This document shows positions 33,349-52,271 of a DNA stretch of 53,757 nt, piece after piece. The translations under genes and the position numbers were made by a program. Source of the stretch: Clostridia bacterium (lineage in GTDB: Bacteria; Bacillota; Clostridia; TANB77; CAG-465). The stretch spans positions 1-53,757 of the forward strand of contig JAZSRF010000013.1 of the NCBI GenBank assembly GCA_045538335.1. The letters run 5' to 3'. The notes beneath the pieces are model-generated. The model ran no database searches and was not told the DNA's origin. It worked only from the letters and a program-made list of their open reading frames with translations. The stretch's first letter is position 1; each line of letters begins with the position of its first letter.

Positions 33349-35058
33349 TTAATTATTAGGAAGTGTTATATAGAATCTGGTTCCACGTCCCGTTTTTGTG
33401 TCGAAAGTAATTTTTCCTCCGAAGCTTCCTCTTATTACAGAGTTGGCAAGATATAGACCTACACCTGCAGTAGGCATATCATTTACTCTTACTATTTTCT
33501 TAAATATCATAGGTCTAATTTCTTCTTTAATTCCGCCAGCCCAATCTTCTATCTTTATAACTGGTCTATTTACATCATCTCTATATATTTCTATATCTAT
33601 AATTCCACCTTTATCTTTATAAGCTTCTATTGCATTTTGTATAATATTAGATAGTACTTGGGCAAGTTTTGAAGTATTACCAGCAATCCATATATCTTGT
33701 TCAGATTTAATATCTAATCTTACATTGTTTTTAGCAAGCTCACCATGCATAATTACATATAAATCTTTTATTAAGTCTTGTAAACTAAATTCTGTATTCG
33801 AATTACTTCCAAAGTTCCTCATTTGGTTTTTAAGGCTGTTTACTAGACTAGAAATCTTATCTGCAGAGTTAGTCATGCTTTCAATAAGCTGTTTTTCAAT
33901 ATCTGTTTTAACAGTACTTCTAAGCATTAGTAGACCACTCTTTATTGCAGTAATAGGTGTATTTATATCATGAGCTACTCCTCCGGTAAGTTCCCCTATT
34001 ACCTCAAGGTTTTCACTTTTTACATATCTATCTATAGCATTCTTCTGTTCTGTTATATCTTGAAAAACTAAAAGTGTTGCTATATATCCATTAGTTGTTC
34101 TCGCCCTAATCGGTTGAACTTGTACATCAAAATATCTGTCATATTTTTGTTTTACTATGTGATATTCCTGAACAACTACTCCTCCCTTATCTTCTGCATC
34201 CATAATATGTGTTCTCAAGTTTTTTAATGATGTTATTCCCTCATACTTAATAGCATCAAATATATTACTGTTTTTATCCAAATTTAATATACTACCAAAC
34301 TTACTATTAAAACTTCTATTTTTATCTACTATCTCACCAACATCGTCAATTACAACAAACGCATCGGACATTATATCTATAACACTGTTAAGTGCTATTG
34401 GAACTGCATTTAGTACGTTATATTTTAATATATCCAAAGATAATACTAAGGCCGTTAGCATATATGCTATTGGCATAGTATATTCTGGCATAGGGATGTT
34501 CGCAATTAACGTTACTATTCTAGGTATAAAAGGTATTATACAAGCTAGTATAAGAAGCAATGTTTGTGGTGATAAAAATTTACTTTTATCCATTGATGAA
34601 CGTATTATTAAAAGTATTGCTGGTATAACCTGAATATATGCCAGTGCCACATATACATAATATAGCACACCATAAACTGTATTAATACCTATGCTTTCAA
34701 AAAACATCCCGTGCCAAGAATTAGTCCATACAGAAACTATTATATATACTGGTATAAAGAAAACCCAAGCATATTTTTTAACTTCTACCCTAGGATTTTC
34801 ATATACCAACGCAAATATTAGTAAAAGTGTTGGTATAAAAGCTTTACCAATACAAATTATATATTCAAAATATATGAGAGGTATTCTTAGTGTGTCTGCA
34901 AATGTAAGTTGCAAAAACACACCAAGAGTCTCTATAAGTATTGCTATAAACAAATATGCTAATACTTTATACACATTAGATTTATTTCTTCTCTCATACA
35001 AAAATACTACAAGTACATATATGGTAGCAATTGCTACTCCTATTAATGTTTGTACCAT
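33349..35058 (-). CDS. Orphan sensor histidine kinase (HisKA_7TM-type membrane domain, PAS, HisKA, HATPase)
   Basis: WTNSWHGMFF in the 7TM region; H-box VAHDINTP; N-box QVLSNIIQNA; G boxes EDWAGGI and AGVGLY. Confidence 0.9.
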   Translation of the reverse strand: MVQTLIGVAIATIYVLVVFLYERRNKSNVYKVLAYLFIAILIETLGVFLQLTFADTLRIPLIYFEYIICIGKAFIPTLLLIFALVYENPRVEVKKYAWVFFIPVYIIVSVWTNSWHGMFFESIGINTVYGVLYYVYVALAYIQVIPAILLIIRSSMDKSKFLSPQTLLLILACIIPFIPRIVTLIANIPMPEYTMPIAYMLTALVLSLDILKYNVLNAVPIALNSVIDIMSDAFVVIDDVGEIVDKNRSFNSKFGSILNLDKNSNIFDAIKYEGITSLKNLRTHIMDAEDKGGVVVQEYHIVKQKYDRYFDVQVQPIRARTTNGYIATLLVFQDITEQKNAIDRYVKSENLEVIGELTGGVAHDINTPITAIKSGLLMLRSTVKTDIEKQLIESMTNSADKISSLVNSLKNQMRNFGSNSNTEFSLQDLIKDLYVIMHGELAKNNVRLDIKSEQDIWIAGNTSKLAQVLSNIIQNAIEAYKDKGGIIDIEIYRDDVNRPVIKIEDWAGGIKEEIRPMIFKKIVRVNDMPTAGVGLYLANSVIRGSFGGKITFDTKTGRGTRFYITLPNN

Positions 35059-35243: not shown

Positions 35244-35729
35244 ATGAAAGACATTGAAATAAAAACAAATGATTCTAAGTTTAAATATAGAGTAAATGGA
35301 CTTGTTATAAACAACAATAAATTACTTACTTTAAAAATGAATAATAATACTTCATATTGTTTACCAGGAGGGCATGTTGAATTAGGCGAAAATACACATG
35401 CTGCTATAATAAGAGAAATGGCAGAAGAATTAAATACAAATGTTGCTATAAAGTCTGAATTTGCTTTTGTAGAGAGCTTTTATGCTGATAAAAACAATCT
35501 TAAAACACATGAATTAAGTTTATATTATATTGTAGAGCCTGAAAATTATGACCATATCTCTTTAACAGATTATACAATAGAAGAACTAGATAATGGCGTT
35601 TTAAAGAAGCACAACTTTGTTTGGCTGGACATTGCTGATATTGATAATGTAGACTTTAGACCTTCGTTTATTAAAGAAAAACTTGCAAACAACAATTTTG
35701 ATTTTGAACATATAATTATAACAGACTAA
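35244..35729 (+). CDS. NUDIX hydrolase
   Basis: Nudix box GGHVELGENTHAAIIREMAEELN. Confidence 0.92.
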   Translation: MKDIEIKTNDSKFKYRVNGLVINNNKLLTLKMNNNTSYCLPGGHVELGENTHAAIIREMAEELNTNVAIKSEFAFVESFYADKNNLKTHELSLYYIVEPENYDHISLTDYTIEELDNGVLKKHNFVWLDIADIDNVDFRPSFIKEKLANNNFDFEHIIITD

Positions 35730-35751
35730 TGGAGTTCTCTCATTAGTCTGT
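35721..35751. terminator. Terminator between convergent NUDIX and PfkB-SIS genes
   Basis: ACAGACTAATG / CATTAGTCTGT inverted repeat. Confidence 0.7.
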
Positions 35752-35774
35752 TCTTCAATCAATTAATCATATAT

Positions 35775-37760
35775 TTATAACTTTCCACTATATTTATATA
35801 TAACCATAGAATCTTCAGTATAATCCGGTTTAGATAAATCAATATTTAAAAGTTTTGATATATTAGCAACAAAATACTGTACTGCTATTAACAAATCATA
35901 TTCTGCGATTAAACCTTCATATTGGGACTCAATTGTTATCATCATATTACTATTTTTATTTAGATAATTTATTAGTTTTTCTTCATAATTATCCTTTTTA
36001 CTAGTTTTCAAATATACTATAGCATCACTACAAAAATGCTCATTTACAATAAATCTACCGTGTGAAAAATTTTTCTTTTCATGCATATCAATCCTATATA
36101 TCCCCGACTCCGTTAATTTGGACTCTAGATCAAAAGATGCTGTATCTACGTTATCACCATAAAATATATCAATTAAATTTTTCTTTTCTAAAACTCTTGA
36201 TAATTCTTTTTTGTTTTCTTTAAAATATTTATCAAAATATTCTTTCCAATACTCAAATCTATTTAATACAAATTCTCCAAAAGACAGATTATTGTTTTTA
36301 GAATCAAAATACAATTTTGCAAACAGAGTTGCTGGCGCTACTGTTCCTTCAAAAGATAAAAAGCCTCTTTCTCTTCCTTGCGCATGTAATGCATTACAAT
36401 ATGAAATCACATTAACATCTGGATTAACATATTTTAATTTAACTTTTTCTTCCTTTTGTTTTGTTATAATAGTACATTTAGTATCTAAGTTATTTAATAC
36501 ATAGACTATATCTGGGCTAGTGCCTGAATACGAAAATGCGTAAACATTTTTAATATCCTTATTATTTCTATACATCATATCTCGTGGATTTAAAAATAAA
36601 GTTGTGTTAGAATACAATTCATTTACTACCTTTGCAGCAAAACAAGCTGCTGCTCTAGAACCACCAGAGCCCAAAAAAGCGTATGTTCCATTTTTAGCAT
36701 TTTCTTCAATATCTAATTTTATTTTTTTATAAGCTTCAGATTCCAGTGCTCTCGTAACTCTATTATATAAGTTAGAAATATTCACTAAAGCTTTTTTCCT
36801 TGTTCTTTTTAAATCTGTATCTTTACTATTACATCCACATATACATTTGTCCTGTTTTATTTCTTTACTATAAAGTTCTTCTAAAGTTCCCCTCGCACCT
36901 AATACAGTTACCACCTTGCCAGACAACTTCGCCGCATTATTATATGCCTCTCTTATCATGTTATCAGCTATAATAAACTTATTCTTAATATAAGCTCTTA
37001 TTATTTCTGAATAGAAAGAATCTCCTGCACCACTAGGGTCGTATTCTTTAGATATACTATTGGTTTCAAAGAAAACTTCTTTATCGTTATATATAAATGT
37101 GGCCCCTTTCTTTCCGTGCGTAATAGTTATCAATTCCGAATTAAATATTTGTTGTAATTCTTTATAACTATTTAATTTAAATTTATTGTATAGAAATATT
37201 GCTACTCTCTCATTTAATTGAACAACATTGAATTTATTTGATAATTTTTCTTTTAATTCGCTTAATGTTAGATATTTAAGATTCCCTATTTGACCAATAT
37301 CTATTAATACTTTTGCTCCTACTTTATTGAATTTATTTACTATATTTAAATTAACTTTGTTTATAGTATCTACTATTACCACATTGTCACTATCTAACAA
37401 TTTTTTTGGAATATTTTCTGGGACCTTTGTATCATCATACCATTTTTTATCTCCACATATTGGGCATGACTTTTTAGATTTCATTTCACAATTCAATTCA
37501 TTTTTTATGCTTACAAAAAATCTTCTGGTAGGTATGTCTTTTATTAAAATATTACTTGTATTTACTCCAAGTCTTTCTAGACTTTTAGTCGCAACATTTC
37601 CCTCAAAATCATTTCCACATACTCCATAAGCATACGTTTCAAATTCATTTGCAAGATGCGCTATTATATTAAATGACGTCATACCACCACAAGTTCCTTT
37701 AAATTCATCATTTACAAAATAGTAATCTGTTACTAAATCTCCAACACCAATTATTTTCAT
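35775..37760 (-). CDS. PfkB/ribokinase-family kinase fused to SIS sugar-phosphate-binding domains
   Basis: GGMTSFN, ITHGKKGA, DPSGAGDSF; CPICG insert; SIS-like FLGSGGS, FSYSGTSPD, KNFSHGRF. Confidence 0.8.
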   Translation of the reverse strand: MKIIGVGDLVTDYYFVNDEFKGTCGGMTSFNIIAHLANEFETYAYGVCGNDFEGNVATKSLERLGVNTSNILIKDIPTRRFFVSIKNELNCEMKSKKSCPICGDKKWYDDTKVPENIPKKLLDSDNVVIVDTINKVNLNIVNKFNKVGAKVLIDIGQIGNLKYLTLSELKEKLSNKFNVVQLNERVAIFLYNKFKLNSYKELQQIFNSELITITHGKKGATFIYNDKEVFFETNSISKEYDPSGAGDSFYSEIIRAYIKNKFIIADNMIREAYNNAAKLSGKVVTVLGARGTLEELYSKEIKQDKCICGCNSKDTDLKRTRKKALVNISNLYNRVTRALESEAYKKIKLDIEENAKNGTYAFLGSGGSRAAACFAAKVVNELYSNTTLFLNPRDMMYRNNKDIKNVYAFSYSGTSPDIVYVLNNLDTKCTIITKQKEEKVKLKYVNPDVNVISYCNALHAQGRERGFLSFEGTVAPATLFAKLYFDSKNNNLSFGEFVLNRFEYWKEYFDKYFKENKKELSRVLEKKNLIDIFYGDNVDTASFDLESKLTESGIYRIDMHEKKNFSHGRFIVNEHFCSDAIVYLKTSKKDNYEEKLINYLNKNSNMMITIESQYEGLIAEYDLLIAVQYFVANISKLLNIDLSKPDYTEDSMVIYKYSGKL

Positions 37761-37765
37761 AAATT

Positions 37766-38704
37766 TTACCTTTCCCCATCAAAATCTAAATCTCTTAATA
37801 GTTTTTTTGTAGCTTTAGTTCCCTTTATTATTTCACCATCTTCTCCCATTACAGGTAACACCTCTGGTATAGAACTTTCAATCTCATCTACAGAAAAACC
37901 CGCATATAATTTAAGCATATTAAAATCATTTCCGTGCACTTTTCCTTGGTCACCTAATTTTATCACATCTGTATCTTTTATTCCATACCTTTCTTCAAAA
38001 AATTTTACCGCTCTTAATTTATCTGCAATAGATAATTCCCATATTAACTTATCTTTATGTTTACCTTTAAGCACAGATATCTCTTCTGCCAAATCCGTCT
38101 TGCAAAGCACTTCTTTCAGCGCAAGTGTCATTGCATCATAATCTTCAACTTCGTCATAATTAAAAGCAAACCTTAAGCTCATATCTCCACTACTTTTGAT
38201 AGACCTAGAAACAAATTCTGTTAAATCTCCTTTTACCAACCCAAGTCCTTTTACACTGGTTATATATTCTCTTCTTAAAACATCCTTCATTTTAGTATAT
38301 CTTTCAAGAATGGTGTCACTTACTATCACTTGTTCAGAGTCTAAAAAATCTTTTGATGTATCTAGAAATATAGCCCCATTACTAGTCGCACATGTTATAT
38401 TTTTTACATCCATTTTTCTGTCTTTCATATATCTATATACTTGCATTAGAACTTCTCTACTTTTTGTTCTACCCATACCAGTTATAAAACATAAACTCGT
38501 ATTGCGTTCTAATAATTCATAAAATATTGACAACATTTCTTCATCTATAATTTCATGTTCTCTTATTGTTTTATCTACATCTAAACATACAGCAGAATAA
38601 GTTTTTGCAAACAACTCTTCAAAATATTGTAATGCGTATGCTCCTTTTACACTGTCAGATTTTATCCTTTTATATGCCATAGCATATTTTGTTATATCAA
38701 TCAT
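37766..38704 (-). CDS. HAD-superfamily phosphatase (Cof/IIB-like)
   Basis: Motif I CLDVDKT, motif II FITG, SNGA, conserved K in DK, motif IV GDQG...NDFNML. Confidence 0.8.
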   Translation of the reverse strand: MIDITKYAMAYKRIKSDSVKGAYALQYFEELFAKTYSAVCLDVDKTIREHEIIDEEMLSIFYELLERNTSLCFITGMGRTKSREVLMQVYRYMKDRKMDVKNITCATSNGAIFLDTSKDFLDSEQVIVSDTILERYTKMKDVLRREYITSVKGLGLVKGDLTEFVSRSIKSSGDMSLRFAFNYDEVEDYDAMTLALKEVLCKTDLAEEISVLKGKHKDKLIWELSIADKLRAVKFFEERYGIKDTDVIKLGDQGKVHGNDFNMLKLYAGFSVDEIESSIPEVLPVMGEDGEIIKGTKATKKLLRDLDFDGER

Positions 38705-41102
38705 AATTTATACTTTCAACTCCTAATTCCTTAGTAACTTTACTTCCTTTCTTAAATTTACCGTTTTTATATAAAAATTCACAAACTCTTCTCTTTCTTA
38801 TGTCAAATATTCCAAATTCATCTTTGTATGGCGCACCCTTTTTAGCATCAACCTGTTCTCTTACATCATATCCAACTTTTGTATATGGGCTAGGAAATAA
38901 TAGTCCATTAATATATGTGAAAAATTTTGTTGTATCAATAGCACCGTGGTCATTATTGAACATATGCGCTACTCTATTCATAGATGGATATCTGACCGCT
39001 ATTATATCGTCTACATTAATACCATTATTAAAAAGGCCATTTAATGCTATTTGTAATGTTTTACCCGTAAGTACATTATCGTCTGAAACAATGTTATGAC
39101 CGTCTAAACTTCTTCTATCTCCAAGAATTGTAAATCTTTCATCTGAAAACTCTTTAATTGGCTTACTATGTCTTTGAGAATAGTTTCCCCCATGCATAAC
39201 TGCTCCCAAAATTATATTTGTTTGATTCTCTAATATCCCTTTTGCAATAAAAGGTAATTCTAAGCCTCCATACATCATTCCATTAAAAGAAACATCTTTG
39301 CTTGATAAATTCGGGTTTCTTTTTTTGATTGTATCTATAGCATATTGCATCGTTAATCTGTTTTCACCATAACAATCAATCTCTCTATATGTTCTAAAAC
39401 ACTTTCCATTAAGTTTTGCATTGTCTTTAGTTAATATTCCATTTACCGACTTGCTATATATACCTTTAATATCTCCCAATACTTGTAGCATTTGCTCATC
39501 TTGGCCTGAAATGTCTATAGAAGTATCTAGGCTTTCCATTATTCTAGAAACATTTTCACATATCTCAACCCATTTATTAATATCTTCATTTTTTCTATAT
39601 GTATCGAACAGTATATGTACATTAGTTCCATTAAATTCATTTACCATAGTTGCATTAAGCATTATTAAGGAAAGATTTCTAATATTATCCATAATTGCAA
39701 GCTTAAATCTCCTATTTACTGAAGAATTAGGCAGTTCTTGTTTTAATGCTTGTGTAAATTGTTCCATTAAATCTAAATAATTAGTATGCCACTGACTAAC
39801 ATCTTCATTACTTAAGCCATCCTTTGTAGTTGAATTTGCCAAAAAATAATAATACTCATCTGCTCCTCTTAAAATTACCGAATTATTATTTTGCAATTTA
39901 TGTGAATATTTACCACCTTGGTTTTGTTCAAATATTTCTTTAAATGGATTGTTATCATCTATAAGTTCCCATTCATAATCTGCAAATTTAACTCCACCTG
40001 TGTTTTTATCATATACATCATAGATGCCGTTTGGAACTTCAAATAAGTATGCATATTTGGCATTTCCTTCTTGTAATATTTGAGTTCTATTTTCAACAAT
40101 ATGTTTTTCAGCTATAGCCAATTGGCGTCTTTGTCTTTCATAATCTGCCTTTTCCAAACATATAGTTGGTGTTATTTTTAATTGTTCTAATAAATATACT
40201 GTACCCTGGATACCTTCTAATTTTTTTCCTTGCTCATCTATTATAGGGAAACATGCATATGGTTCATCAGAAATTGCCCCAGTACTAAAAGCTTGTGATA
40301 CATTTAAAATTTCATAATCGTTTCCTCTATGAGCACCTTCATCACATATCCTCACCATAGAGTTCTCAGGTATACCCAATATATACTCTGCCTGCCTTAT
40401 TGATTCCGAGTTGTCTGTAACCCCAATTTGATATACTTTGTCTCCTTCATAGTGTCCCATAGACGCTTTATATATATCTTTCATTGTTGGGCTATAGCTT
40501 CTTATTACTGCCGCTAGTTCTTCTAATAATTGTTCTTCCACAGTTTTATCTTTTATTCTAAATCTAACATTTGTAATACGCTCTAAACTCTCACTATATG
40601 AAGGTATAACTATTACTTTATCGCCAAATTTTTCACTTATTATTTTAACCATAGGCTCGCTTAAAAATGTTAACTCTTTTACATATTCAGGATTAGCCAA
40701 AAGTTTTACAACATCTAAACACTCTCCTGTTTCGCCTGATGTATATAACAATATTGCTCCATTATTACATACACAAGATATTTGATTAAGTTTTAAATCT
40801 TCTATAGAATACTGTTCTTTTAAATTAGATAGCAATTCGTTTACAAATTCCCTAGTAGAACTTTCCCCTCTGCCTGTTGTAAATACAATAGGTACATTTT
40901 TGTTTAATAACTTATATAATATCTCTAAAGTACCCTCAGAAGCTAATTTTTCATCAACTAATGTTCCATCAATATCTATACAAACAGCGTTATATCTCAT
41001 TTTAAACGTATCTTCTAAAACACTTCTTAATTTTGTCTTTTCTTCTTCACCTAAACCTTTTAATTTAGCAACCTCTTCTACATATTTTTCTATGTCTATC
41101 AT
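38697..41102 (-). CDS. HAD-like domain fused to a C-terminal phosphoribosyltransferase-like domain
   Basis: CIDIDGTL, FTTGRG, NNGA, CDEG...NDYEIL; C-terminal GMMYGGLELP and PRPP-loop-like IVSDDNVLTGKTL. Confidence 0.75.
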   Translation of the reverse strand: MIDIEKYVEEVAKLKGLGEEEKTKLRSVLEDTFKMRYNAVCIDIDGTLVDEKLASEGTLEILYKLLNKNVPIVFTTGRGESSTREFVNELLSNLKEQYSIEDLKLNQISCVCNNGAILLYTSGETGECLDVVKLLANPEYVKELTFLSEPMVKIISEKFGDKVIVIPSYSESLERITNVRFRIKDKTVEEQLLEELAAVIRSYSPTMKDIYKASMGHYEGDKVYQIGVTDNSESIRQAEYILGIPENSMVRICDEGAHRGNDYEILNVSQAFSTGAISDEPYACFPIIDEQGKKLEGIQGTVYLLEQLKITPTICLEKADYERQRRQLAIAEKHIVENRTQILQEGNAKYAYLFEVPNGIYDVYDKNTGGVKFADYEWELIDDNNPFKEIFEQNQGGKYSHKLQNNNSVILRGADEYYYFLANSTTKDGLSNEDVSQWHTNYLDLMEQFTQALKQELPNSSVNRRFKLAIMDNIRNLSLIMLNATMVNEFNGTNVHILFDTYRKNEDINKWVEICENVSRIMESLDTSIDISGQDEQMLQVLGDIKGIYSKSVNGILTKDNAKLNGKCFRTYREIDCYGENRLTMQYAIDTIKKRNPNLSSKDVSFNGMMYGGLELPFIAKGILENQTNIILGAVMHGGNYSQRHSKPIKEFSDERFTILGDRRSLDGHNIVSDDNVLTGKTLQIALNGLFNNGINVDDIIAVRYPSMNRVAHMFNNDHGAIDTTKFFTYINGLLFPSPYTKVGYDVREQVDAKKGAPYKDEFGIFDIRKRRVCEFLYKNGKFKKGSKVTKELGVESINYD

Positions 41103-41153: not shown

Positions 41154-41187
41154 GTTATTTATTACATATTTTTACATTTTATGCCAA

Positions 41188-41218
41188 AAAATAAAGGACT
41201 ATTTCTAGTCCTTTATTT
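41188..41218 (-). terminator. Terminator after the NRPS-kinase operon
   Basis: AAATAAAGGACT / AGTCCTTTATTT plus U-tract, overlapping the kinase stop codon. Confidence 0.7.
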
Positions 41219-42937
41219 CAACGGTATTGTAATATAAAATGTTGTTCCTTTTCCTTCTTCTGTGTCAAATGTAATTTCTCCGCCAAAGGCTCCTGTTATT
41301 ACAGAGAATGCTAGGTAAAGACCAAATCCTGTACCATTTACACCTTTTGTTGTAAGAATATTTTTACCGATATTATCTCTAATATGTTCTGGTATTCCAC
41401 CTGCAAAATCTTCTATTGAAATTACAGCATTGTTATTTTTCTCATCTACAACAACATTTACTTCTCCACCTTTATCCTCATAAGCTTGTACAGCATTTAC
41501 AATAATGTTTGTTACAACTTGAGAAAGCTTTGCAGAGTTTCCTTTTACTGTTAAATCTTTCTTTATATCTAGATTTAAGTTTACTCTATGTTTTGTAAGC
41601 TCATTATGTATTATTACAGATACGTCTTTTATAACCGATGTAATATTTACATCGCTAATCTCATTACTTCCAATATTTCTTATTTGGTTTCTTAAGCTGT
41701 TTGTAAGCGTTACAATTTTATTTGCACAGCTATCCATTCTTTCTACAAGCATTTTTTCATCATCAGATCTAGCTGTAGATTTAAATATTAATAGCCCACT
41801 CTTTATTGCAGATATTGGTGTATTTATATCATGAGCAACACCTCCTGCAAGTTCTCCTAGCATTACTAAGGATTCATTTTTAAGCATTACTTCCATATCT
41901 TTCTTTGCTTGTGTTACATCCCTAAGAAGTATAAGTGTTGCTACATATTCTGTACCATCTTTAGATTTAACTGGTTGAAAGTCTACTTCAAAATATCTAT
42001 CATAAGCACCTTTTTCTATGTGATATTCTTTAGTAATTGTTGTTTCTTTTTCAATAGCCTCTGCTATATCTTTTTGTATATCCGTAAGACTTATAAAGTC
42101 TGCAGATTTTAAGATATCAAAAAGATTATCTTTATTTTTTATTTCACCAAACGCTTTAAATTTCTCAACAAATGTTTTGTTTAAATCTGCTATTGTTCCA
42201 TCTTCACTTATTACCACGAAAGCATCACTCATGTTATCTACTATTGCTTTTAATGTTACGGGTATAACGTTTAGTGCTTTTAATTTAAATATTGCTATGT
42301 AGAAACATACTGCTGTAACAGTATATGTAATAGGCATTATATACACATTACTGTCTATAATTCTCAATGCACCAAATGCATTAAATACTACCGGTACTAA
42401 AGCCCCTAAAAGTACTAATGCTGTTTGTACAGAGAAAAAGCCTGACTGTTTTACAGTTTTAACTGTTATAAGTGTAAAAGATATTAATACTAATGTATAC
42501 GAATATACCATAAAAACATATAACATTGGGCCAAATACTGTTGCCGCAAAATCTGTTGAATATTCTATGTAAAACAAATTATGCAAATCATTTGTCCAAA
42601 GAAATCCTAAAAGAATTGTTGGAACTAAGTATAACCAGCCAACTTTTTGTGTATTAGCATTCTTGTTTTTAAATACAATAGCTATTACCATAAGTTCAAC
42701 AGCCGTAAACATTGCGCCTATGTATGTTATGTACTCAAAATAAATTGGTTTTATATTAGTTTTAGACATCAATATTTGTAAGGCTAATCCTAATATGTGT
42801 ATACAAAATAATATATCTAGTATTATAAAATGATTATGTAACTTATTTCTTTTTTCTATTTTTAACAACGAATATATTAGTACTATAAGTATTATAAATG
42901 CCATTGTTAATATTAAAAATGTTGTATTAATTATCAT
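41213..42937 (-). CDS. Orphan sensor histidine kinase (HisKA_7TM-type, PAS, HisKA, HATPase), paralog of 33349..35058
   Basis: WTNDLHNLFY; VAHDINTP; QVVTNIIVNA; EDFAGGI; GTGFGL; ATGA overlap with NRPS stop. Confidence 0.92.
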   Translation of the reverse strand: MIINTTFLILTMAFIILIVLIYSLLKIEKRNKLHNHFIILDILFCIHILGLALQILMSKTNIKPIYFEYITYIGAMFTAVELMVIAIVFKNKNANTQKVGWLYLVPTILLGFLWTNDLHNLFYIEYSTDFAATVFGPMLYVFMVYSYTLVLISFTLITVKTVKQSGFFSVQTALVLLGALVPVVFNAFGALRIIDSNVYIMPITYTVTAVCFYIAIFKLKALNVIPVTLKAIVDNMSDAFVVISEDGTIADLNKTFVEKFKAFGEIKNKDNLFDILKSADFISLTDIQKDIAEAIEKETTITKEYHIEKGAYDRYFEVDFQPVKSKDGTEYVATLILLRDVTQAKKDMEVMLKNESLVMLGELAGGVAHDINTPISAIKSGLLIFKSTARSDDEKMLVERMDSCANKIVTLTNSLRNQIRNIGSNEISDVNITSVIKDVSVIIHNELTKHRVNLNLDIKKDLTVKGNSAKLSQVVTNIIVNAVQAYEDKGGEVNVVVDEKNNNAVISIEDFAGGIPEHIRDNIGKNILTTKGVNGTGFGLYLAFSVITGAFGGEITFDTEEGKGTTFYITIPLK

Positions 42938-45900
42938 TTGTTATCCCCTTTTATAAAATTTATTTTTTCTAGATATTTAATATATTTAATAATATACTCT
43001 TCATCTATTTTTGGCCATTCAAATCCCAAAAGTTCCAAAACTTTTATTGTAAAATCTGATTTGATTACTGTGTTCGGTGTATAATCTAATTCTTTATTTC
43101 TATTCAAATCTTGGATTATTCCTTTTACCTTTTCATAGCCATTATCCTCTTTAGAATAAAAATCTATAAGTTCTGTCATTTGTTTTTTGCTAATATGTTT
43201 CAACTTATAATTTAAATTACTAAGTGCTTTATCTAGTTCTGACATAATTATATGATTATGATTAAATAAGTGATATGTATTGTGATGTTCCTTCACTGTA
43301 GCAAGTAGACATATTGCCTTTGCCGCTAAATCTATAGGTGTAAATTCAACATTAAAATCTAACAAATTCTTAGGAAGTACTCCTAAATCTATAATGGTCT
43401 TTAATCTGTTAGCAAAAGCATTTTCCTCAACATTTGGTTGAAACATACCATCACTAATTCTACTAGTCAAATTACCCATTCTAATCACAGTAGCATCTAA
43501 ACCTTTTAATACATATTCATACACTGCTTTTTCTCCTAAAAACTTAGTATATGCATATACATTATCTAGGTTCTGGCCTATATATAAATTTGTTTCATTA
43601 AATATCGTTCCCTTTGCAATATCAACTTGTTCTATTTGTCCTACTTCTAAAATATTTCCAGAAACACTAAGTGTTGATATATGTATCAATTTCTTATTAT
43701 TCTCTAGAGCAAATTGAGCTAAATTATCTATACCGAAATAATTTATCTTTTTAAATATTTCTATATTTCCATAGTGCTTAACATAGGCTGCAGAATTAAT
43801 GATTACTTCTACATTATTTTTAATTAGCTCTATATCTTCCTGATTGTTAACAATATTTTCTAAAACAATATCTCCATCAATTATTATAATTCTTTTATCA
43901 AATAATTCATCATATTTATTTTCAAAAAAGAAATTTAGTCTTTCTTTTAATCTTTGTTTTGGTGTTTTTTCATTAACTTTTCTTACTAAACAGTAAATCT
44001 TTATATTTGTATTATCTAATAAATATGATAAAATATGTGCACCTAAAAATCCTGTTGCCCCTGTTAACAATACATTGCCTAATTTTTGTGTATCAATCTT
44101 TTGATTTTTTATTGTGTTTGACTTTAATAATTTGTGTATTTCTTTGAAATCAATGCTTTTTAATTCTTCTGAAATTGATACTTTGGATTTGTTTTTTGCG
44201 AGCATATCTGTCAAATCATTAATCGACTGATATTTGTATAAATCTGCAAATGTAATATTTATATTTTTATTCATTGCTAAAGTTATTGCCTTAATTGCAG
44301 ATAATGAATCCCCACCAATTTCAAAGAAACTATCATTTGGATATATATCTTCTCTATTTAAAGTTTCTCTAAATACTTCATATAAAACTTTTGATATTCC
44401 ATCATATTCTGGTAGTTGTTCTTGCGTCAATTCACTCTGAGTTACCTGTATATAGTTTAGAAGTTCTTTAGTATTAACTTTACCATTCTGATTTAAAGGT
44501 AGTTTTTCTAATTGGCAAATGTATGATGGCACCATATATGAAACTAGTCTTTCCTTTAGATATGACTTTATTTCATTAAGTGAAATTTCTCGTTTAGCAC
44601 TATAAAATCCAGCCATTTTCTTATTATTAGTATGGTCTTGATATATAAATACAGCAACATCATCTATATCTTTGTGTGCTAGAAAAGCATTTTTCACTTC
44701 ATCTAATTCTATTCTATAGCCTCTAATTTTAACTTGATTGTCTCTTCTTCCGATAAAGTCTATATATCCACCTTCAAGCATTCTAACAACGTCTCCAGTT
44801 TTATACATTCTACCTTTATGTGTTATTTCATCTTGTACAAACTTCTCGCGTGTCAAATCCTCTTTATTTATATATTCTAACGCAACACTGTCTCCGCCTA
44901 TTATATACTCACCTTCGGTATAAAGAGGAAGTAGTCTAAATTTGCTATCTATTACATAACCATAGGTATTAGATATAGCTTTACCTAAAGGCAATCTCTT
45001 ATCTGTTACATTTTTTACGTTAAATGTATTAGTAAAAGTAACGCATTCTGTTGGTCCATAGCAATTTATTATTTCAAGATTAGGATATGTTTCTCTTAGT
45101 TTATTTACATGTTTTAATGACATTACATCTCCGCCGCTTAAAACAGTTCTCAAACCTTCAAACACTTCTATTTTACCATCTATTATTTGATTAAATAGTG
45201 CTGCTGTAATCCAAGCTACAGTTACATTCCTTTCTTTTATATATTTGTTCAAATATTCAAAATCTAATAAATTTGACTTTTTAATTAAAGCACAAGTCCC
45301 TCCATTTAATAAAGTCCCCCAGAATTCAAATAAGGATACATCAAAGCTCGTTGATGCCGCTTGTAAAATAACATCTGTTTCTCTAAGTTCCATATAATCT
45401 GGATTTTTAACAAGCTTAGTAATATTTTTGTTTATTATTACAGCTCCTTTAGGATTACCTGTTGTTCCAGAAGTATACAATATACATACGGGGCTTTCGA
45501 TTCCATATGATATGCTTCTATTAAACTCTGGTTTTGCATTTTCCCACTTAATATCATTTACATATATTGTGTCTACATCAAATTTTTCCAAATTGTCTTG
45601 TATAACTAATTTAACATTAGCGTCATTTATTAGATATTCTTTTCTATCATATGAATAATTTGTTTCTATAGGTAAATAATATGCTCCTACCTTAAGCACT
45701 GCAATTATACTAATTAAAAGTTCAAATGATTTATCTATAACTATTCCTATTACATCATTTTCTTTAATTCCTTTACTGTATAGTATATTCGCTAAACAAT
45801 TCGCCTTTTCATTAAGTTCACAATATGTTAGTTCTTCATTTTCAAGTGTCAATGCCACTTTATTAGGGGTAATCTTAACTTGCTCTTCAAATAAATCTAT

Positions 45901-47259
45901 AACCGTTTTATCTTTAGGATATTCTCTTGTAGTATCATTAAACTCACCTAATATTTTATCTCTTTCTTCATTAGGCATTATATCTATATTTTCAATTGTT
46001 TTGTTGTTTATAATTCCGTCCTTAATAATTGTAAATATTCTTTGAGCTAAATGTTCTATTTCTATATCTTCGAATAAAGATGTTATATAGTCAAAATGTA
46101 CATCTAAGTTACCACTTGCATTTAAATCTTCTATATGTATTTCTATCTCGTTTTGGATATTACCGCTAAAACGCCATTTAAGTTCATATTTAGTAGTATC
46201 AACTATTTCTGAACGAGCATTTTGATAAGATAACATTACCTTATACATGTTATCTGATACACCATTTATTTCTTTATACTCTTCAGATATTTTTGAATAA
46301 GGATATTTTTGATGTCTAAATAGTGTCATAGAATCTGATGCAACTTTTTTACAAACATCTAAAAATGCATCTTGCTCATCTATATTAAATCTGACTGGCA
46401 TTGTTGATACGAACATACCTATCATATTTTTTTCTTTAAAATTCGACCTGTTAAGCACAGGTGTACCTATTGCAAAATCTGTTTTTTCTTTCACTCTTTC
46501 TATATATATTGCAAGAGCTGTTAAAAACAATACATATGGAGAAAGTCTATTTTGTTTACAATACTCATCTATTAAGCCTTGAAATTCATTATCTAATTTT
46601 ATAGTATATCTTTTTGCAAGAGTATTACCGGCTACAATAGTATCTTTTAAGCCAACTATATCTGTCATTCCTTTTAAGTATTCTTTCCAGAATTCGCTAT
46701 CTTTAGAATATTTTTCAGAACTTATATATTCTTGTTCAGCTAATATGAAATCTGTATAACTTGGATTAACATCAAGTATTTCATTACCACTTAATATTGC
46801 TTCATATATGTTACAAAGCGATGTACACATTTTAGATATTGACCACGCATCACAAATTAAATGATGTGCTTTTAAAAATATTTCGCCTACACCTTGTCCT
46901 CTATCTATTAAAAGATAAGAAAATAGTGGTTTTTCTATGACATCAAAACCTGTAGAAATATACTCCTCTTTTATTTTATCTATCTCTTGTTCTGTTTTGC
47001 CTTCCACATTTATTTTATCCGCTTCAAAAGGCGCAAAACTAGATACATACTGTTTAGGTATGCTATTTTCTACACATATTCTAAGTCTCATTCCTTCGTT
47101 TATTTCTACAAATTTGTTAACTGTTTGTTCTGCTTTTGAAATTTCAAAATCCTTCTTTATGATTAGAGAACCAGATATAATATTAATTAGTTTACTCTCA
47201 TAAAAGTTCTCTACCAACCATATGTTTTTTTGAGGAAATGTTAGTTCAAATTTTTCCAT
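42934..47259 (-). CDS. Single-module NRPS, C-A-T-R (terminal thioester reductase)
   Basis: C domain HHLICDAWS; A domain YTSGTTGNPKG, NCYGPTE, YKTGD, QVKIRGYRIE, LPLNQNGK; T domain FFEIGGDSL; R domain LTGATGFLG and YAYTK. Confidence 0.95.
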   Translation of the reverse strand: MEKFELTFPQKNIWLVENFYESKLINIISGSLIIKKDFEISKAEQTVNKFVEINEGMRLRICVENSIPKQYVSSFAPFEADKINVEGKTEQEIDKIKEEYISTGFDVIEKPLFSYLLIDRGQGVGEIFLKAHHLICDAWSISKMCTSLCNIYEAILSGNEILDVNPSYTDFILAEQEYISSEKYSKDSEFWKEYLKGMTDIVGLKDTIVAGNTLAKRYTIKLDNEFQGLIDEYCKQNRLSPYVLFLTALAIYIERVKEKTDFAIGTPVLNRSNFKEKNMIGMFVSTMPVRFNIDEQDAFLDVCKKVASDSMTLFRHQKYPYSKISEEYKEINGVSDNMYKVMLSYQNARSEIVDTTKYELKWRFSGNIQNEIEIHIEDLNASGNLDVHFDYITSLFEDIEIEHLAQRIFTIIKDGIINNKTIENIDIMPNEERDKILGEFNDTTREYPKDKTVIDLFEEQVKITPNKVALTLENEELTYCELNEKANCLANILYSKGIKENDVIGIVIDKSFELLISIIAVLKVGAYYLPIETNYSYDRKEYLINDANVKLVIQDNLEKFDVDTIYVNDIKWENAKPEFNRSISYGIESPVCILYTSGTTGNPKGAVIINKNITKLVKNPDYMELRETDVILQAASTSFDVSLFEFWGTLLNGGTCALIKKSNLLDFEYLNKYIKERNVTVAWITAALFNQIIDGKIEVFEGLRTVLSGGDVMSLKHVNKLRETYPNLEIINCYGPTECVTFTNTFNVKNVTDKRLPLGKAISNTYGYVIDSKFRLLPLYTEGEYIIGGDSVALEYINKEDLTREKFVQDEITHKGRMYKTGDVVRMLEGGYIDFIGRRDNQVKIRGYRIELDEVKNAFLAHKDIDDVAVFIYQDHTNNKKMAGFYSAKREISLNEIKSYLKERLVSYMVPSYICQLEKLPLNQNGKVNTKELLNYIQVTQSELTQEQLPEYDGISKVLYEVFRETLNREDIYPNDSFFEIGGDSLSAIKAITLAMNKNINITFADLYKYQSINDLTDMLAKNKSKVSISEELKSIDFKEIHKLLKSNTIKNQKIDTQKLGNVLLTGATGFLGAHILSYLLDNTNIKIYCLVRKVNEKTPKQRLKERLNFFFENKYDELFDKRIIIIDGDIVLENIVNNQEDIELIKNNVEVIINSAAYVKHYGNIEIFKKINYFGIDNLAQFALENNKKLIHISTLSVSGNILEVGQIEQVDIAKGTIFNETNLYIGQNLDNVYAYTKFLGEKAVYEYVLKGLDATVIRMGNLTSRISDGMFQPNVEENAFANRLKTIIDLGVLPKNLLDFNVEFTPIDLAAKAICLLATVKEHHNTYHLFNHNHIIMSELDKALSNLNYKLKHISKKQMTELIDFYSKEDNGYEKVKGIIQDLNRNKELDYTPNTVIKSDFTIKVLELLGFEWPKIDEEYIIKYIKYLEKINFIKGDNK

Positions 47260-47300
47260 ATTTATTACTCCTAACTCAATCTATTTCCACGCAATATAAG

Positions 47301-47356
47301 TATAACAAATACAGACAAAATGTGCAACAATATGTCACTCATTTTGTCTGTATTTT
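47301..47356 (-). promoter_or_regulatory. 56-bp promoter/operator element, copy 1, upstream of the NRPS
   Basis: TTGCAC-17-TATACT; perfect 16-bp inverted repeat AAATACAGACAAAATG/CATTTTGTCTGTATTT; 54/56 identical to 51407..51462. Confidence 0.8.
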
Positions 47357-48050
47357 AATACATATTATATTTTGATATAAATTTATCTAAGTCAAAATTT
47401 CCATCGCACATATCTTTTGAAATTTCACCAGTAATATATGCCGTTAGAATTGATGTGCTACACTCTTGCCATTTAGTAGCTTTTAATTCATCTTTTATAT
47501 CCTTACTTGTTATACTTATGCTCGCTTGTTCGTTACTGCAATTTGCAACAGATATGACTCCATCATAACAAGCTGGAAATGTTATAGCATTTGAATAATT
47601 TAAGCAAGCCGCTACAATTAATGTACCACTTTTAGTTAATTCATTAATAGTTCGTCTTAGTTCTTCATTTTCTTCAAATGTTGTAAAGCTCATACATATT
47701 ATATCTACTTCTTTTTCTTTTAACCATTCTAACCCTTTTATAACATCATCAATATTACCTGTGTTTTTGTCATTTAAAACATTTGCTAAGTATATTTCAC
47801 TATTACGGTCTCTGCTTTTTATTGTGTCTACTACCATATCTGAGTGAGTGTTGGCAGTCATAATATTGTTTGTGGCTTGTGTAAAGCAAGCAACATTATA
47901 GCTCTGTTTATAATTTTCGGACAAGTTTGTATCAATAACTCCAATTTTTAAGTACCTAACATTAGTATTTTTTATTTTCCAAAAGGTTAATAGTCCAAAT
48001 ATAAAAACCGTTGATAGTATTGCTATTAATATAAGCCGTTTATGTTTCAT
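47355..48050 (-). CDS. Compact S8 (subtilisin-like) serine peptidase with N-terminal signal/anchor
   Basis: KIGVIDT (Asp), THSDMV (His), IVAACLN, FPACYDGVISV, STSILTAYITG (Ser). Confidence 0.75.
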   Translation of the reverse strand: MKHKRLILIAILSTVFIFGLLTFWKIKNTNVRYLKIGVIDTNLSENYKQSYNVACFTQATNNIMTANTHSDMVVDTIKSRDRNSEIYLANVLNDKNTGNIDDVIKGLEWLKEKEVDIICMSFTTFEENEELRRTINELTKSGTLIVAACLNYSNAITFPACYDGVISVANCSNEQASISITSKDIKDELKATKWQECSTSILTAYITGEISKDMCDGNFDLDKFISKYNMY

Positions 48051-48068
48051 ATTTACACTCCTTAATTA

Positions 48069-48105
48069 ATAACCACTAACTAGTTAACAACTAATTAGTG
48101 GTTAT
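48069..48105. terminator. Long intergenic hairpin (terminator or stability element)
   Basis: 17-bp arms ATAACCACTAACTAGTT / AACTAATTAGTGGTTAT with one mismatch. Confidence 0.55.
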
Positions 48106-48122
48106 ATTATACACTTAGCCTA

Positions 48123-48428
48123 TTAAAAGTTCAACTTTGGTAAGTTTTTATCGTATTTTTCTCCCCAAACATAATGTTTAATAACTCTAGGTTTTGAATT
48201 TGGTGCTACTTCTTTCATCCAGTCAATAATTGGGTTTATGTCAAAAAACTTATAAGGTAAGTCCGAACGTTGTCTCATGCAAGTTAATTTTTTACCTTCA
48301 ATTATTTCTGAATGTTCTTCATAATACCATTTTTCAAATTCTTCTTGGTATTTTTCTATCTGTTCACCTAAAAAAGGTTCAAATTCTATTAAATACCAGT
48401 CTTGTGTAAAATCTACTATTACTTTCAT
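48123..48428 (-). CDS. Small hypothetical protein, candidate immunity protein
   Basis: GGAGG RBS; aromatic/acidic 101-aa protein starting 17 nt after the extended toxin-like ORF. Confidence 0.65.
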   Translation of the reverse strand: MKVIVDFTQDWYLIEFEPFLGEQIEKYQEEFEKWYYEEHSEIIEGKKLTCMRQRSDLPYKFFDINPIIDWMKEVAPNSKPRVIKHYVWGEKYDKNLPKLNF

Positions 48429-48445
48429 TTATCTACCTCCAAATT

Positions 48446-49299
48446 TTATACTCCTGGGAACCAACAATGAGGCCTCTTAGTAGGATCTTTCACCCATTTT
48501 CTACCAATTGGGTGAAAATGTGGAAATCTATCCCCCGCGCCTCGATGAGCATCCTCATATTTCGCCTTATACGTAGTTGATGCTGCTGAAGCTGCTAACC
48601 ATGCTGCGTTATAATTACTTGCAAAAACATCATAACCTTTTTTAATCTAGAAACAGCAGCTGAATAGCTGATTTGGTTACCCACCATTACTTGATTATTA
48701 TACAAATATGCTGCATAATAATAAGTTTTATTGTTTTTCTTGGATGTTTTTACTAGGTCTAAAGCTCTCGTTGCAGTTTTAGCTTTCGTACGTAAATCAC
48801 TCTTAGTGATTGTTTTACTTCTAACACCTTTGATTGTTGTTGCAATAAGCTCTGCTGAATAATACGTTGCTACAGCAAGTGTAGCAGAAATAACAGCCGA
48901 TATTACTACTTTTGCAGCTGCTACAATTGCAGGTGCCCAATAACCCGCTGAAAGAGCGATAGCAGCTACAGATTGAGCAACTACTTGTTCATCATATGTT
49001 GAATCATTATAATCTGCAATATAAACCATTGCACAGCCGTCATACATGTCAACGTTCAAATCATATTTTACTTCATCCAAGTGTAACGAATATGTTTCTT
49101 CTTGCTTATCATACGTACATTTAACAACTGTTCCTTCTACTTCAGTTTCCGAGCTTACTTGTGTGTTGTTTTCTTTCAGTGTCACGTTTTCTGTTTGTTG
49201 GTTGGTATCTCCAGATACCCGTGTGTTGCTGTTGGGTATTAATGTTATTCCCAACAACATTGCGAAGATTAGAGCAAGCGATATAAATTTCCGTAACAT
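48446..49299 (-). CDS. Secreted toxin/bacteriocin-like protein interrupted by a -1 frameshift at A_AAA_AAG
   Basis: Signal peptide; Ala/Val-rich hydrophobic segment; -1 frame continues GYDVFASNYNAAWLAA...EDAH...FPHFHP...PHCWFPGV to TAA at 48446. Confidence 0.65.
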
Positions 49300-51406: not shown

Positions 51407-51462
51407 TATAACAAATACAGATAAAAGGTGCAACAATATGTCACTCATTTTGTCTGTATTTT
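51407..51462 (-). promoter_or_regulatory. 56-bp promoter/operator element, copy 2, upstream of the aminopeptidase
   Basis: TTGCAC-17-TATAAT; 54/56 identical to 47301..47356. Confidence 0.8.
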
Positions 51463-51523
51463 GTACTAATTATTTTCTTTGACATTTACTACAAAATATG
51501 TTAATATGCAAGTGGTGATTATA

Positions 51524-52222
51524 ATGAACGTTAATCAAACAATAACTGTAGTAAAAAACAAATTGTCGGTTACTTATCCAGCAAGCGAAGATACGTCATT
51601 AATAAATATGTTTATTGATAAAATTATTTCTATGTTTGGTAATATCCAAAATTATTTTGATGTTGAATATGACTACCTAAATTTAAATCTATACAGCAAA
51701 ACCAACTTTAATAAATTTGTAGCACAGACAACTACTCAATATGGCGACAAAAACAATGTTCCTGAATGGCTTGTTGGTTTTTCAGTAAATGAAAGTGTCA
51801 GCATAATAATTCCTTGTATTGAAAAACTAGAATATATGGCTAAAGTTGCTATTCATGAGCTTGTACATCTTTTATCATACAAGACACAACATAAAGAAAA
51901 AAGAGTCAAATTACTTGACGAAGGAATTGCTTGTTTCTTAAGCAATCAAATGTCAGAAAAAAGATTTCTAACTATTGTGGATGACTATAAACAAAACTCT
52001 CTTCATAAAATAGAAGATTTTTGTATATACAACGGAAATGAATTTGGGAAACGCAATGGTTATGCTTACTCTTACATGATAATGGAATTCTTAAATATAC
52101 AATTTGGAAAAGAAAAAATTATATATTGGTTAAAATATCCTGAAGATTTTCTAGAAATCGTACCTACAATAGAAACCGATTTTAGAAAATATTTAATAGA
52201 TAGAATTAATAAAAATAATTAA
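51524..52222 (+). CDS. Putative zinc metallopeptidase (clan MA/gluzincin-like)
   Basis: HELVH followed by DEGIA (third-ligand Glu) and YAYS; likely start ATG at 51524. Confidence 0.7.
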   Translation: MNVNQTITVVKNKLSVTYPASEDTSLINMFIDKIISMFGNIQNYFDVEYDYLNLNLYSKTNFNKFVAQTTTQYGDKNNVPEWLVGFSVNESVSIIIPCIEKLEYMAKVAIHELVHLLSYKTQHKEKRVKLLDEGIACFLSNQMSEKRFLTIVDDYKQNSLHKIEDFCIYNGNEFGKRNGYAYSYMIMEFLNIQFGKEKIIYWLKYPEDFLEIVPTIETDFRKYLIDRINKNN

Positions 52223-52271
52223 TGAGAAAGAAATAATGTTTCCTTCTCATCTTTATTATATATATATTTAT

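Follow-up and report, generated by a model that had tools for sequence, protein, structure and literature searches.

The window analysed here, a 53,757-nt stretch of contig JAZSRF010000013.1 from a Clostridia bacterium of the order TANB77, carries two adjoining minus-strand genes that we predict to form a cell-to-cell signalling unit. The first encodes a nonribosomal peptide synthetase (NRPS; 42934-47259, 1441 amino acids (aa)) with condensation, adenylation, carrier and reductase domains in that order (C-A-T-R), identified from its open reading frame (ORF), Pfam and NCBIfam. The second (41213-42937, 574 aa; ORF, Pfam and motifs) encodes a histidine kinase with a seven-helix membrane (7TM) sensor domain. 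We propose that the NRPS makes a signal for which the kinase is the receptor, and that the two serve private, pherotype-like signalling between cells. From the sequence comparisons described below, we give this reading a probability of roughly 55%. A synthase-receptor pair had been suggested in a preliminary description of this DNA, which gave no strand for the genes. The suggestion is supported by two patterns: the conserved adjacency of the genes, within the order and in other orders, and the joint replacement of the NRPS body and the kinase sensor.

The joint replacement is seen as a hypervariable block (42310-46855, minus strand) that runs from about codon 135 of the NRPS gene to its end and takes in codons 1 to about 210 of the kinase gene. 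Compared with a genome of the same genus (G011), aa 1-120 of the NRPS are 98-100% identical and the remainder 25-82%, and the kinase is 24-56% identical over aa 1-200 and 84-100%, mostly 100%, over aa 226-574. By domain, the PAS, dimerization and histidine phosphotransfer (DHp) and catalytic ATP-binding (CA) ranges of the kinase are 96-99% identical to those of G011, and the sensor 46%. The DNA identity to G011 and to a further genome (G005) drops from 89-100% to ~60-70% at ~46855 and recovers to 84-91% or more at ~42307-42262, with the same two boundaries. Genomes G005 and G011 differ from each other within the same block and are also mosaic, so at least three block types, with nearly identical flanks, are present in the genus. 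The mosaic recurs in genus g2 (G018, G013, G022, G025) and genus g4 (G034, G026). It is also found in a cassette that includes an HD-GYP regulator (G049 vs G053), where the regulator is 96-100% identical, the kinase from aa 451 to its end 90-100%, the sensor 20-42% and the NRPS 24-48%, and a like mosaic occurs in two pairs from other orders (G149/G079 and G153/G359).

Fifteen kinase pairs with a cytoplasmic identity of at least 78% were compared for the identity of their A-T-R domains and sensors. Three were high in both (A-T-R 94%, sensor 96-98%), twelve were low in both (31-48% and 36-45%) and none was discordant. In partial Mantel tests on 17 single-module loci, whose p-values are inflated by sequence relatedness, the NRPS body correlated with the 7TM domain given the cytoplasmic half (r = 0.78, p = 0.0002), and the NRPS N-terminus correlated with the cytoplasmic half given the 7TM domain (r = 0.87). 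Sharing of block alleles across genera was rejected, as sensor identity exceeded cytoplasmic identity in only one pair, a marginal one, of the 210 formed by 21 loci. Synthase and receptor sensor thus co-vary in discrete groups between conserved flanks, and their co-replacement supports a matched signal and receptor, in an agr-like pattern.

NRPS homologs (E <= 1e-50) were identified in 57 of the 61 genomes sampled from the order, source genome included. Three of these could not be assessed for the neighbouring gene, as the contig ends 32 bp after the NRPS gene (G001), ends inside it (G057) or holds it as a contig-end fragment (G023). The preliminary description had made its proposal depend on linkage of homologous NRPSs to this kinase family in relatives, and such linkage is present in all 54 assessable genomes. 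The kinase gene lies directly downstream of the NRPS gene in 52 genomes and directly upstream, on the same strand, in two (G044 and G058); second NRPS loci in two genomes (G059:C2 and G019:C14) were left out of this count. Flanking DNA was examined in several rounds. Among 30 loci with flanks of 1.5 kb, a kinase came right after the NRPS with a strong match in 26 and a weak one in two, and in the other two the locus or contig ended. A kinase was present in all of 20 further loci with flanks of 5 kb, and additional rounds covered 20 loci of the window's own family (f1) with larger flanks and the nine remaining loci of the order. The kinase is split into two ORFs in G043 and shortened to 504 aa in G029. 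Genes around the pair vary from genus to genus.

Of 399 genomes scored in a class-wide sample, 58 gave an NRPS match at E <= 1e-100. From loci outside the order we picked 19, a non-random sample made up of the best full-length single-module matches and of long multi-module ORFs. Eight of the 19 have the NRPS, the kinase and then a regulator of ~500 aa with receiver (REC), DUF3369 and HD-GYP domains. The 11 loci without a kinase consist of two single-module and nine multi-module NRPSs (2237-2992 aa). Within the order (54/54), the adjacency of NRPS and kinase is conserved far beyond chance.

Because the NRPS body and the 7TM coding region adjoin on the DNA, and the variable block is one tract, a single recombination event could move both without any functional tie. 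This weighs against a matched pair and favours an alternative that we consider unlikely, in which the genes share an operon for co-regulation, the product is directed outward (a protease-inhibiting aldehyde, for example), the kinase responds to a different cue and the joint replacement reflects hitch-hiking of adjoining DNA. The summary of Guo et al. (2017) in PMC8210680 reports that reductase-terminated NRPSs of gut Clostridia make protease-inhibiting dipeptide aldehydes, which fits an outward role. So do the small S8 subtilase-like gene upstream of the NRPS in the window and an HtrA-like protease (Trypsin_2 and PDZ domains) encoded divergently upstream of the NRPS in nine of 20 loci of sister families (L037:3814-4959 and eight others). 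The latter may be of interest if the product is a peptide aldehyde. However, all pairs examined, from three genera of the family and from other orders, have their right-hand breakpoint where the sensor domain ends, and a boundary shared by separate events argues for a functional tie. None of the nine multi-module NRPS loci outside the cassette has an adjoining kinase, and in G044 and G058 the adjacency has outlived a change of gene order.

We identified all four domains of a single-module C-A-T-R NRPS, in order and with core motifs intact. The condensation domain (aa 4-437, 45949-47250, minus strand like all domains of the two genes; PF00668, E = 3.4e-73) has HHLICD at aa 132-137. The adenylation domain (aa 457-927, 44479-45891) comprises Pfam AMP-binding (457-796) and AMP-binding_C (854-927), and the carrier domain (aa 959-1020, 44200-44385; PF00550) has GGDS at aa 982. 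The thioester reductase domain (aa 1062-1436, 42952-44076; PF07993, NAD_binding_4 at 1065-1316) has the NAD(P)-binding motif GATGFLG at 1067 and the YxxxK motif YAYTK at 1235. The TIGR01746 model aligns to aa 1062-1436 with 177.6 bits, under its cut-off of 213.35, and TIGR01733 exceeds its cut-off.

By alignment, the adenylation pocket is formed by D640, V641, F644, W683, L707, G709, C733, T741, F742 and K927. This code resembles those that we take to specify Val or Ile, and differs at two positions from the Val string. The pocket strings of other cassette NRPSs equal what we take to be the canonical Thr and Val codes, a limited validation of the extraction. Many pocket codes occur among the cassette NRPSs, along with the architectures C-A-T-R, C-A-T-C-A-T-R, C-A-T-C-T-R and C-A-T with a thioesterase (TE), a diversity that fits diversification of a signal. 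We predict that the window NRPS loads a small aliphatic amino acid, that the N-terminal C domain probably N-acylates it, and that the reductase would release an aldehyde or alcohol as a small lipophilic product.

The kinase gene encodes a HisKA_7TM membrane sensor, the putative ligand-binding part (aa 9-226, 42260-42913; PF16927, 101.7 bits vs a cut-off of 28.6), followed by cytoplasmic PAS_4 (aa 233-345), HisKA (aa 360-416, with His369) and HATPase_c (aa 467-573) domains found with Pfam (together 41219-42241). The H, N, G1 and G2 boxes of a HisKA_7TM sensor histidine kinase were all identified (AHD at 368, N box at 477, DFAGG at 510 and GTGFGL at 535). In the proposed mechanism, the seven-helix domain of the co-translated kinase would bind the NRPS product, the kinase would autophosphorylate on His369, and the phosphate would pass most likely to a regulator that we call RR-X (G000:C56:17777-18844 in the source genome, G000) rather than to Spo0A. 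We infer the structure of the product, its binding as ligand, the phosphotransfer to RR-X and the targets of RR-X.

A paralogous solo HisKA_7TM kinase (33349-35058, minus strand, 569 aa) is also encoded in the window. It is 41% identical to the NRPS-linked kinase and has a near-identical H box. Relative to the best-matching linked kinases it is 30-37% identical in the sensor and 45-49% in the cytoplasmic half. It is an old duplicate, and possibly a second input to the same pathway. A second kinase of this kind was not found in G003, G004, G005 or G008. Genome G011 has a second HisKA kinase ORF (572 aa) ~8.5 kb downstream. Between the two kinases of the window lies a block of NUDIX, PfkB-domain and two HAD-like genes (35244-41102). 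An AsnB-like gene is located beyond the second kinase, and in G003 an AsnB-like gene directly follows the NRPS-linked kinase.

Two types of regulator were considered as partners of the kinase. A REC-HD-GYP gene follows the kinase in 10 of 20 loci of sister families. In the source genome the ortholog is unlinked and present as one full-length copy (G000:C21:22688-23683), and matches to it at E <= 1e-30, a few of them partial, occur in 61/61 genomes. The phospho-acceptor position is Asp in all 17 cassette-linked REC-HD-GYP proteins. In the f1 orthologs (that of the source genome and 20 others, L113-L132) it is Asn in 20 and Ser in one (G005), so that Asp is absent from 21/21. The HD and GYP motifs of the f1 orthologs are intact, including those of the source genome copy, and the f1 protein is predicted to be a conserved pseudo-receiver phosphodiesterase. 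The unlinked REC-HD-GYP protein (G000:C21) was dropped as kinase partner for family f1 because its acceptor Asp is replaced by Asn. The c-di-GMP-I riboswitch (RF01051) had no match in the source genome, a search made uninformative by a control that matched in 0/14 genomes.

The gene for RR-X directly follows the kinase in three genomes, one of family f1 (G014) and two others (G059 and G038). The source genome has an unlinked ortholog of 356 aa with the acceptor Asp intact (at the position given above; L054:1450-2520), which is 41% identical to the G014 copy over its full length. Besides the source genome, 35 of 36 further f1 genomes have full-length RR-X; only G032 does not, an 80%-complete genome from which the NRPS and the kinase are missing too. 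Compared with families f2, f4 and f5, RR-X best matches the cassette-linked HD-GYP regulator, over the receiver only. The protein is lineage-restricted (67 protein clusters, nearly all of ~345-350 aa).

Pfam identifies only a receiver in RR-X, and a PDB sequence search with its profile returned receiver domains only among the best 60 of 238 matches, so a fold search was needed. The AlphaFold model (pLDDT 83) has a receiver, a long helical hairpin and an alpha/beta domain, and its best fold match is LvrB of Leptospira (8vc9; Foldseek E = 5e-15), followed by the DHp-CA portions of SrrB, HK853 and DivL. E, Q, N or G takes the place of the kinase His in RR-X, and G1/G2 glycine motifs of the ATP lid are not visible. 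A kinase-like fold that lacks these features leads us to read RR-X, from the model, as a receiver fused to a dead DHp/CA kinase fold.

A quick-search tree of kinase DHp-CA regions (56 rows) is divided by a branch of length 1.12 (Shimodaira-Hasegawa-like approximate likelihood-ratio test (SH-aLRT) 100) into one half with all 17 HD-GYP-linked kinases and another with all f1 kinases, including that of the window, together with the RR-X-linked kinases of G014, G059 and G038. Since the window kinase core groups with RR-X-linked kinases, we assign the window cassette to an RR-X subtype. The kinase had been described as an orphan. This holds by position only, as no regulator adjoins it: its core groups with the RR-X-linked kinases, and an RR-X ortholog is encoded elsewhere in the genome.

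Several further observations weigh against the pairing of NRPS and kinase as signal synthase and receptor, or against the output proposed for it. In two genomes (G017 and G027, 96-98% complete) the NRPS is absent but an orthologous kinase is retained, with no trace of an NRPS adjoining it, so the kinase can persist without the proposed source of signal and a simple argument from co-loss fails. Both genomes also retain RR-X, and they could be listeners only or a sign of another input to the kinase. The RR-X gene is unlinked in the source genome, and the three RR-X-linked kinases sit on long branches (0.65 to 1.78). The condensation domain does not appear specifically starter-like by sequence. 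It had been called a starter C domain, which agrees with its N-terminal position without a preceding carrier; the PDB sequence matches do not single out the starter subtype, the best being ordinary C domains (5u89, 2jgp, Txo1/2) and that to the surfactin starter C domain being weaker (1.4e-11). No HHxxxD match was found, in the regex window used, in six of 55 kinase-linked NRPSs. A single match to an ACPS-family phosphopantetheinyl transferase (a 135-aa ORF) was identified in the source assembly, which is 1.2 Mb in size and 80% complete.

The preliminary description also proposed a role in the timing of sporulation, by way of Spo0A. This branch has no direct support and stands by elimination only. 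As an alternative, that the NRPS-linked kinase is an orphan that phosphorylates Spo0A directly, with the NRPS product timing sporulation, is quite unlikely. Orphan kinases of Clostridia phosphorylate Spo0A directly, and the Spo0A_C domain was identified in 61/61 genomes of the order. In two genomes that are 100% complete (G004 and G008) the NRPS-linked kinase is the sole unpaired one of three HisKA kinases, and the only unpaired kinases of the source genome are the NRPS-linked one and the paralog at 33349-35058. These points favour Spo0A. Against them, orthologous kinases directly precede a regulator of their own, REC-HD-GYP or RR-X, in many genomes, and no positional link between the cassette and sporulation genes was found. 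Moreover, G041 (100% complete) has a regulator beside every kinase, the NRPS-linked one included, yet Spo0A is present. The lack of a dedicated Spo0A kinase is thus an order-wide trait and not a pointer to this gene. We conclude that RR-X is a more likely output of the kinase than Spo0A.

A wider scenario would join these elements, and as a whole it is improbable. The N-acyl amino aldehyde or alcohol would be the group-private main social input of spore-formers with genomes of ~1.2 Mb, and phosphorylated RR-X, produced by the kinase, would dock receivers via its DHp-like face. Its targets would be the Asp-less REC-HD-GYP protein, giving a cyclic di-GMP (c-di-GMP) output without phosphotransfer, and/or Spo0A, setting the timing of sporulation. 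The paralog at 33349-35058 would hear the signal of another group.

Co-variation of producer and sensor, and their diversification between close relatives, would also fit autoinduction of, or self-protection against, an antimicrobial, as in the case of nisin and NisK, where the product harms competitors and the kinase senses it and switches on production or immunity. We consider this very unlikely. No immunity gene, ABC transporter or other exporter was identified in or beside the unit in the window, and the associated regulators are not of DNA-binding types (HD-GYP or a dead-kinase fold). The unit is near-universal (57/61) despite genomes of 0.9-1.8 Mb.

The signals around the two genes are consistent with their joint expression as described previously, with one reservation. 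The overlap of the NRPS stop and the kinase start was confirmed, as plus-strand TCAT at 42934-42937 reads ATGA on the coding strand. A Shine-Dalgarno-like AGGGGA run (42944-42949) lies 7-12 nt 5' of the kinase start, within the 3' end of the NRPS gene, and overlap and run together occupy 42934-42949 (minus strand, read from the sequence). The identical -4 overlap was seen at loci L056-L060, L067, L034 and L048. One promoter and one terminator had been claimed for the pair. The terminator stands: an intrinsic terminator 3' of the kinase gene (41182-41219, minus strand) consists of a strong hairpin (41188-41219) and a U run, with -16.3 kcal/mol, z = -6.29 and 0/200 shuffles that fold equally well. 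Upstream, a hairpin with an overlapping promoter-like site (47299-47356, minus strand) forms one copy of a 56-bp repeat. The hairpin (47312-47350; -18.4 kcal/mol, z = -4.61) is probably the terminator of the preceding gene, and the promoter-like match (9/12, with TG) lies at 47326-47299, upstream of the NRPS. In this AT-rich region such matches are no more frequent than expected (95 vs 100.7 +/- 9.9 from shuffled sequence), so a single promoter is plausible only and the scan supports no promoter claim.

From the annotated neighbours, the earlier statement that the unit contains no response regulator, exporter or tailoring gene is correct. The unit is flanked upstream by the small S8 subtilase-like gene (47355-48050) and downstream by a HAD-like gene (38697-41102). 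The window is chromosomal, with genes for IleRS, a GluRS-type synthetase, RNase J and ThrRS, an AsnB-like gene and GH94 genes. Two GH94-type ORFs on the minus strand (2739-8273, 1844 aa, and 593-2746, 717 aa) overlap by 8 nt. They may be two parts of a single large glucan phosphorylase/synthase-like gene or else form a coupled pair.

The 56-bp repeat (hairpin and U run) occurs as near-identical direct copies at 47301-47356 and 51407-51462, which bracket a 4.1-kb block with genes for an M29 peptidase, a helix-turn-helix (HTH) protein, two unknown ORFs and a small QhpE-like S8 subtilase. The block is missing from G011, where a flank 96% identical to window positions 51407-52260 adjoins the NRPS directly. 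Within it, an unknown 234-aa ORF, an unknown 101-aa ORF and the 231-aa S8 subtilase-like gene form a trio (47355-49299) that is present just upstream of the NRPS in five of 41 loci from two genera (the window, L056, L064, L068 and L074). With the NCBIfam QhpE model the subtilase reaches 83.7 bits, under the cut-off of 165.

If the proposed signalling role is correct, the cassette would represent a class of bacterial cell-to-cell signalling in which an NRPS is combined with a seven-helix kinase. The class would be widespread among uncultured gut Clostridia, with alleles that diversify like agr pherotypes. Many 'orphan' gut NRPS clusters hitherto seen as pathways to host-protease inhibitors would have a role in self-signalling. 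The blocks of G000, G011 and G005, on nearly identical kinase cores (cytoplasmic halves 89-98% identical), would be examples of natural matched synthase-sensor sets, usable to learn how a small lipid-like ligand is recognised by a 7TM kinase domain. The unusual downstream layout, with a fusion of receiver and dead kinase and an Asp-less receiver-HD-GYP protein, could show how two-component outputs are rewired.

A full-text literature search covering main texts returned no paper describing an NRPS-kinase cassette of this kind, and in the literature searched HisKA_7TM appeared in archaeal systems only. The passages of PMC13673991 that were consulted hold nothing on an NRPS-kinase cassette. Among characterised enzymes, the myxochelin synthetase MxcG (NF038078) has the same domain order as the window NRPS, and aa 4-1429 align to positions 5-1432 of 1442. 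The score of 461.6 bits vs a cut-off of 2300 shows that it is not an equivalog, and no aryl-carrier or dihydroxybenzoate (DHB) gene is nearby. LvrB (PDB 8vc9), a hybrid receiver-kinase, resembles RR-X, not the window genes, in having REC followed by DHp and CA. It differs in that RR-X is without the phospho-accepting His and visible G1/G2 ATP-lid motifs.

Reductase-terminated NRPSs of gut Clostridia are reported to make dipeptide aldehydes and pyrazinones (Guo et al. 2017, Cell 168:517). The window NRPS shares with them the gut Clostridia host, the initial C domain and the terminal reductase, but with its one module it falls outside that family, which is defined by two or more modules giving a dipeptide aldehyde. 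In the Rpf system of Xanthomonas, which uses diffusible signal factor (DSF), RpfF is the synthase, RpfC the sensor kinase and RpfG a REC-HD-GYP regulator. The cassettes of sister families and of other orders have the same order of synthase, sensor kinase and REC-HD-GYP protein. In contrast, the HD-GYP protein of the window's family is unlinked, with the Asn or Ser acceptor noted above in 21/21 (Asn in the source genome), so a phosphorylatable REC-HD-GYP partner is lacking, and the synthase is an NRPS and not a crotonase.

The closest parallels to the block itself are the agr specificity groups of staphylococci (AgrB/AgrD/AgrC/AgrA) and the ComQXPA pherotypes of Bacillus. The window signal would differ from these in being an NRPS product and not a fragment of a ribosomal peptide. 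Further, the window kinase is of the HisKA type with HisKA_7TM and PAS input, and the regulator is not a LytTR or NarL DNA binder. As in agr and ComQXPA, the putative signal-making gene and the sensor half of the kinase form one hypervariable block with discrete allele groups, which lies between the conserved cytoplasmic half of the kinase and a conserved gene start.

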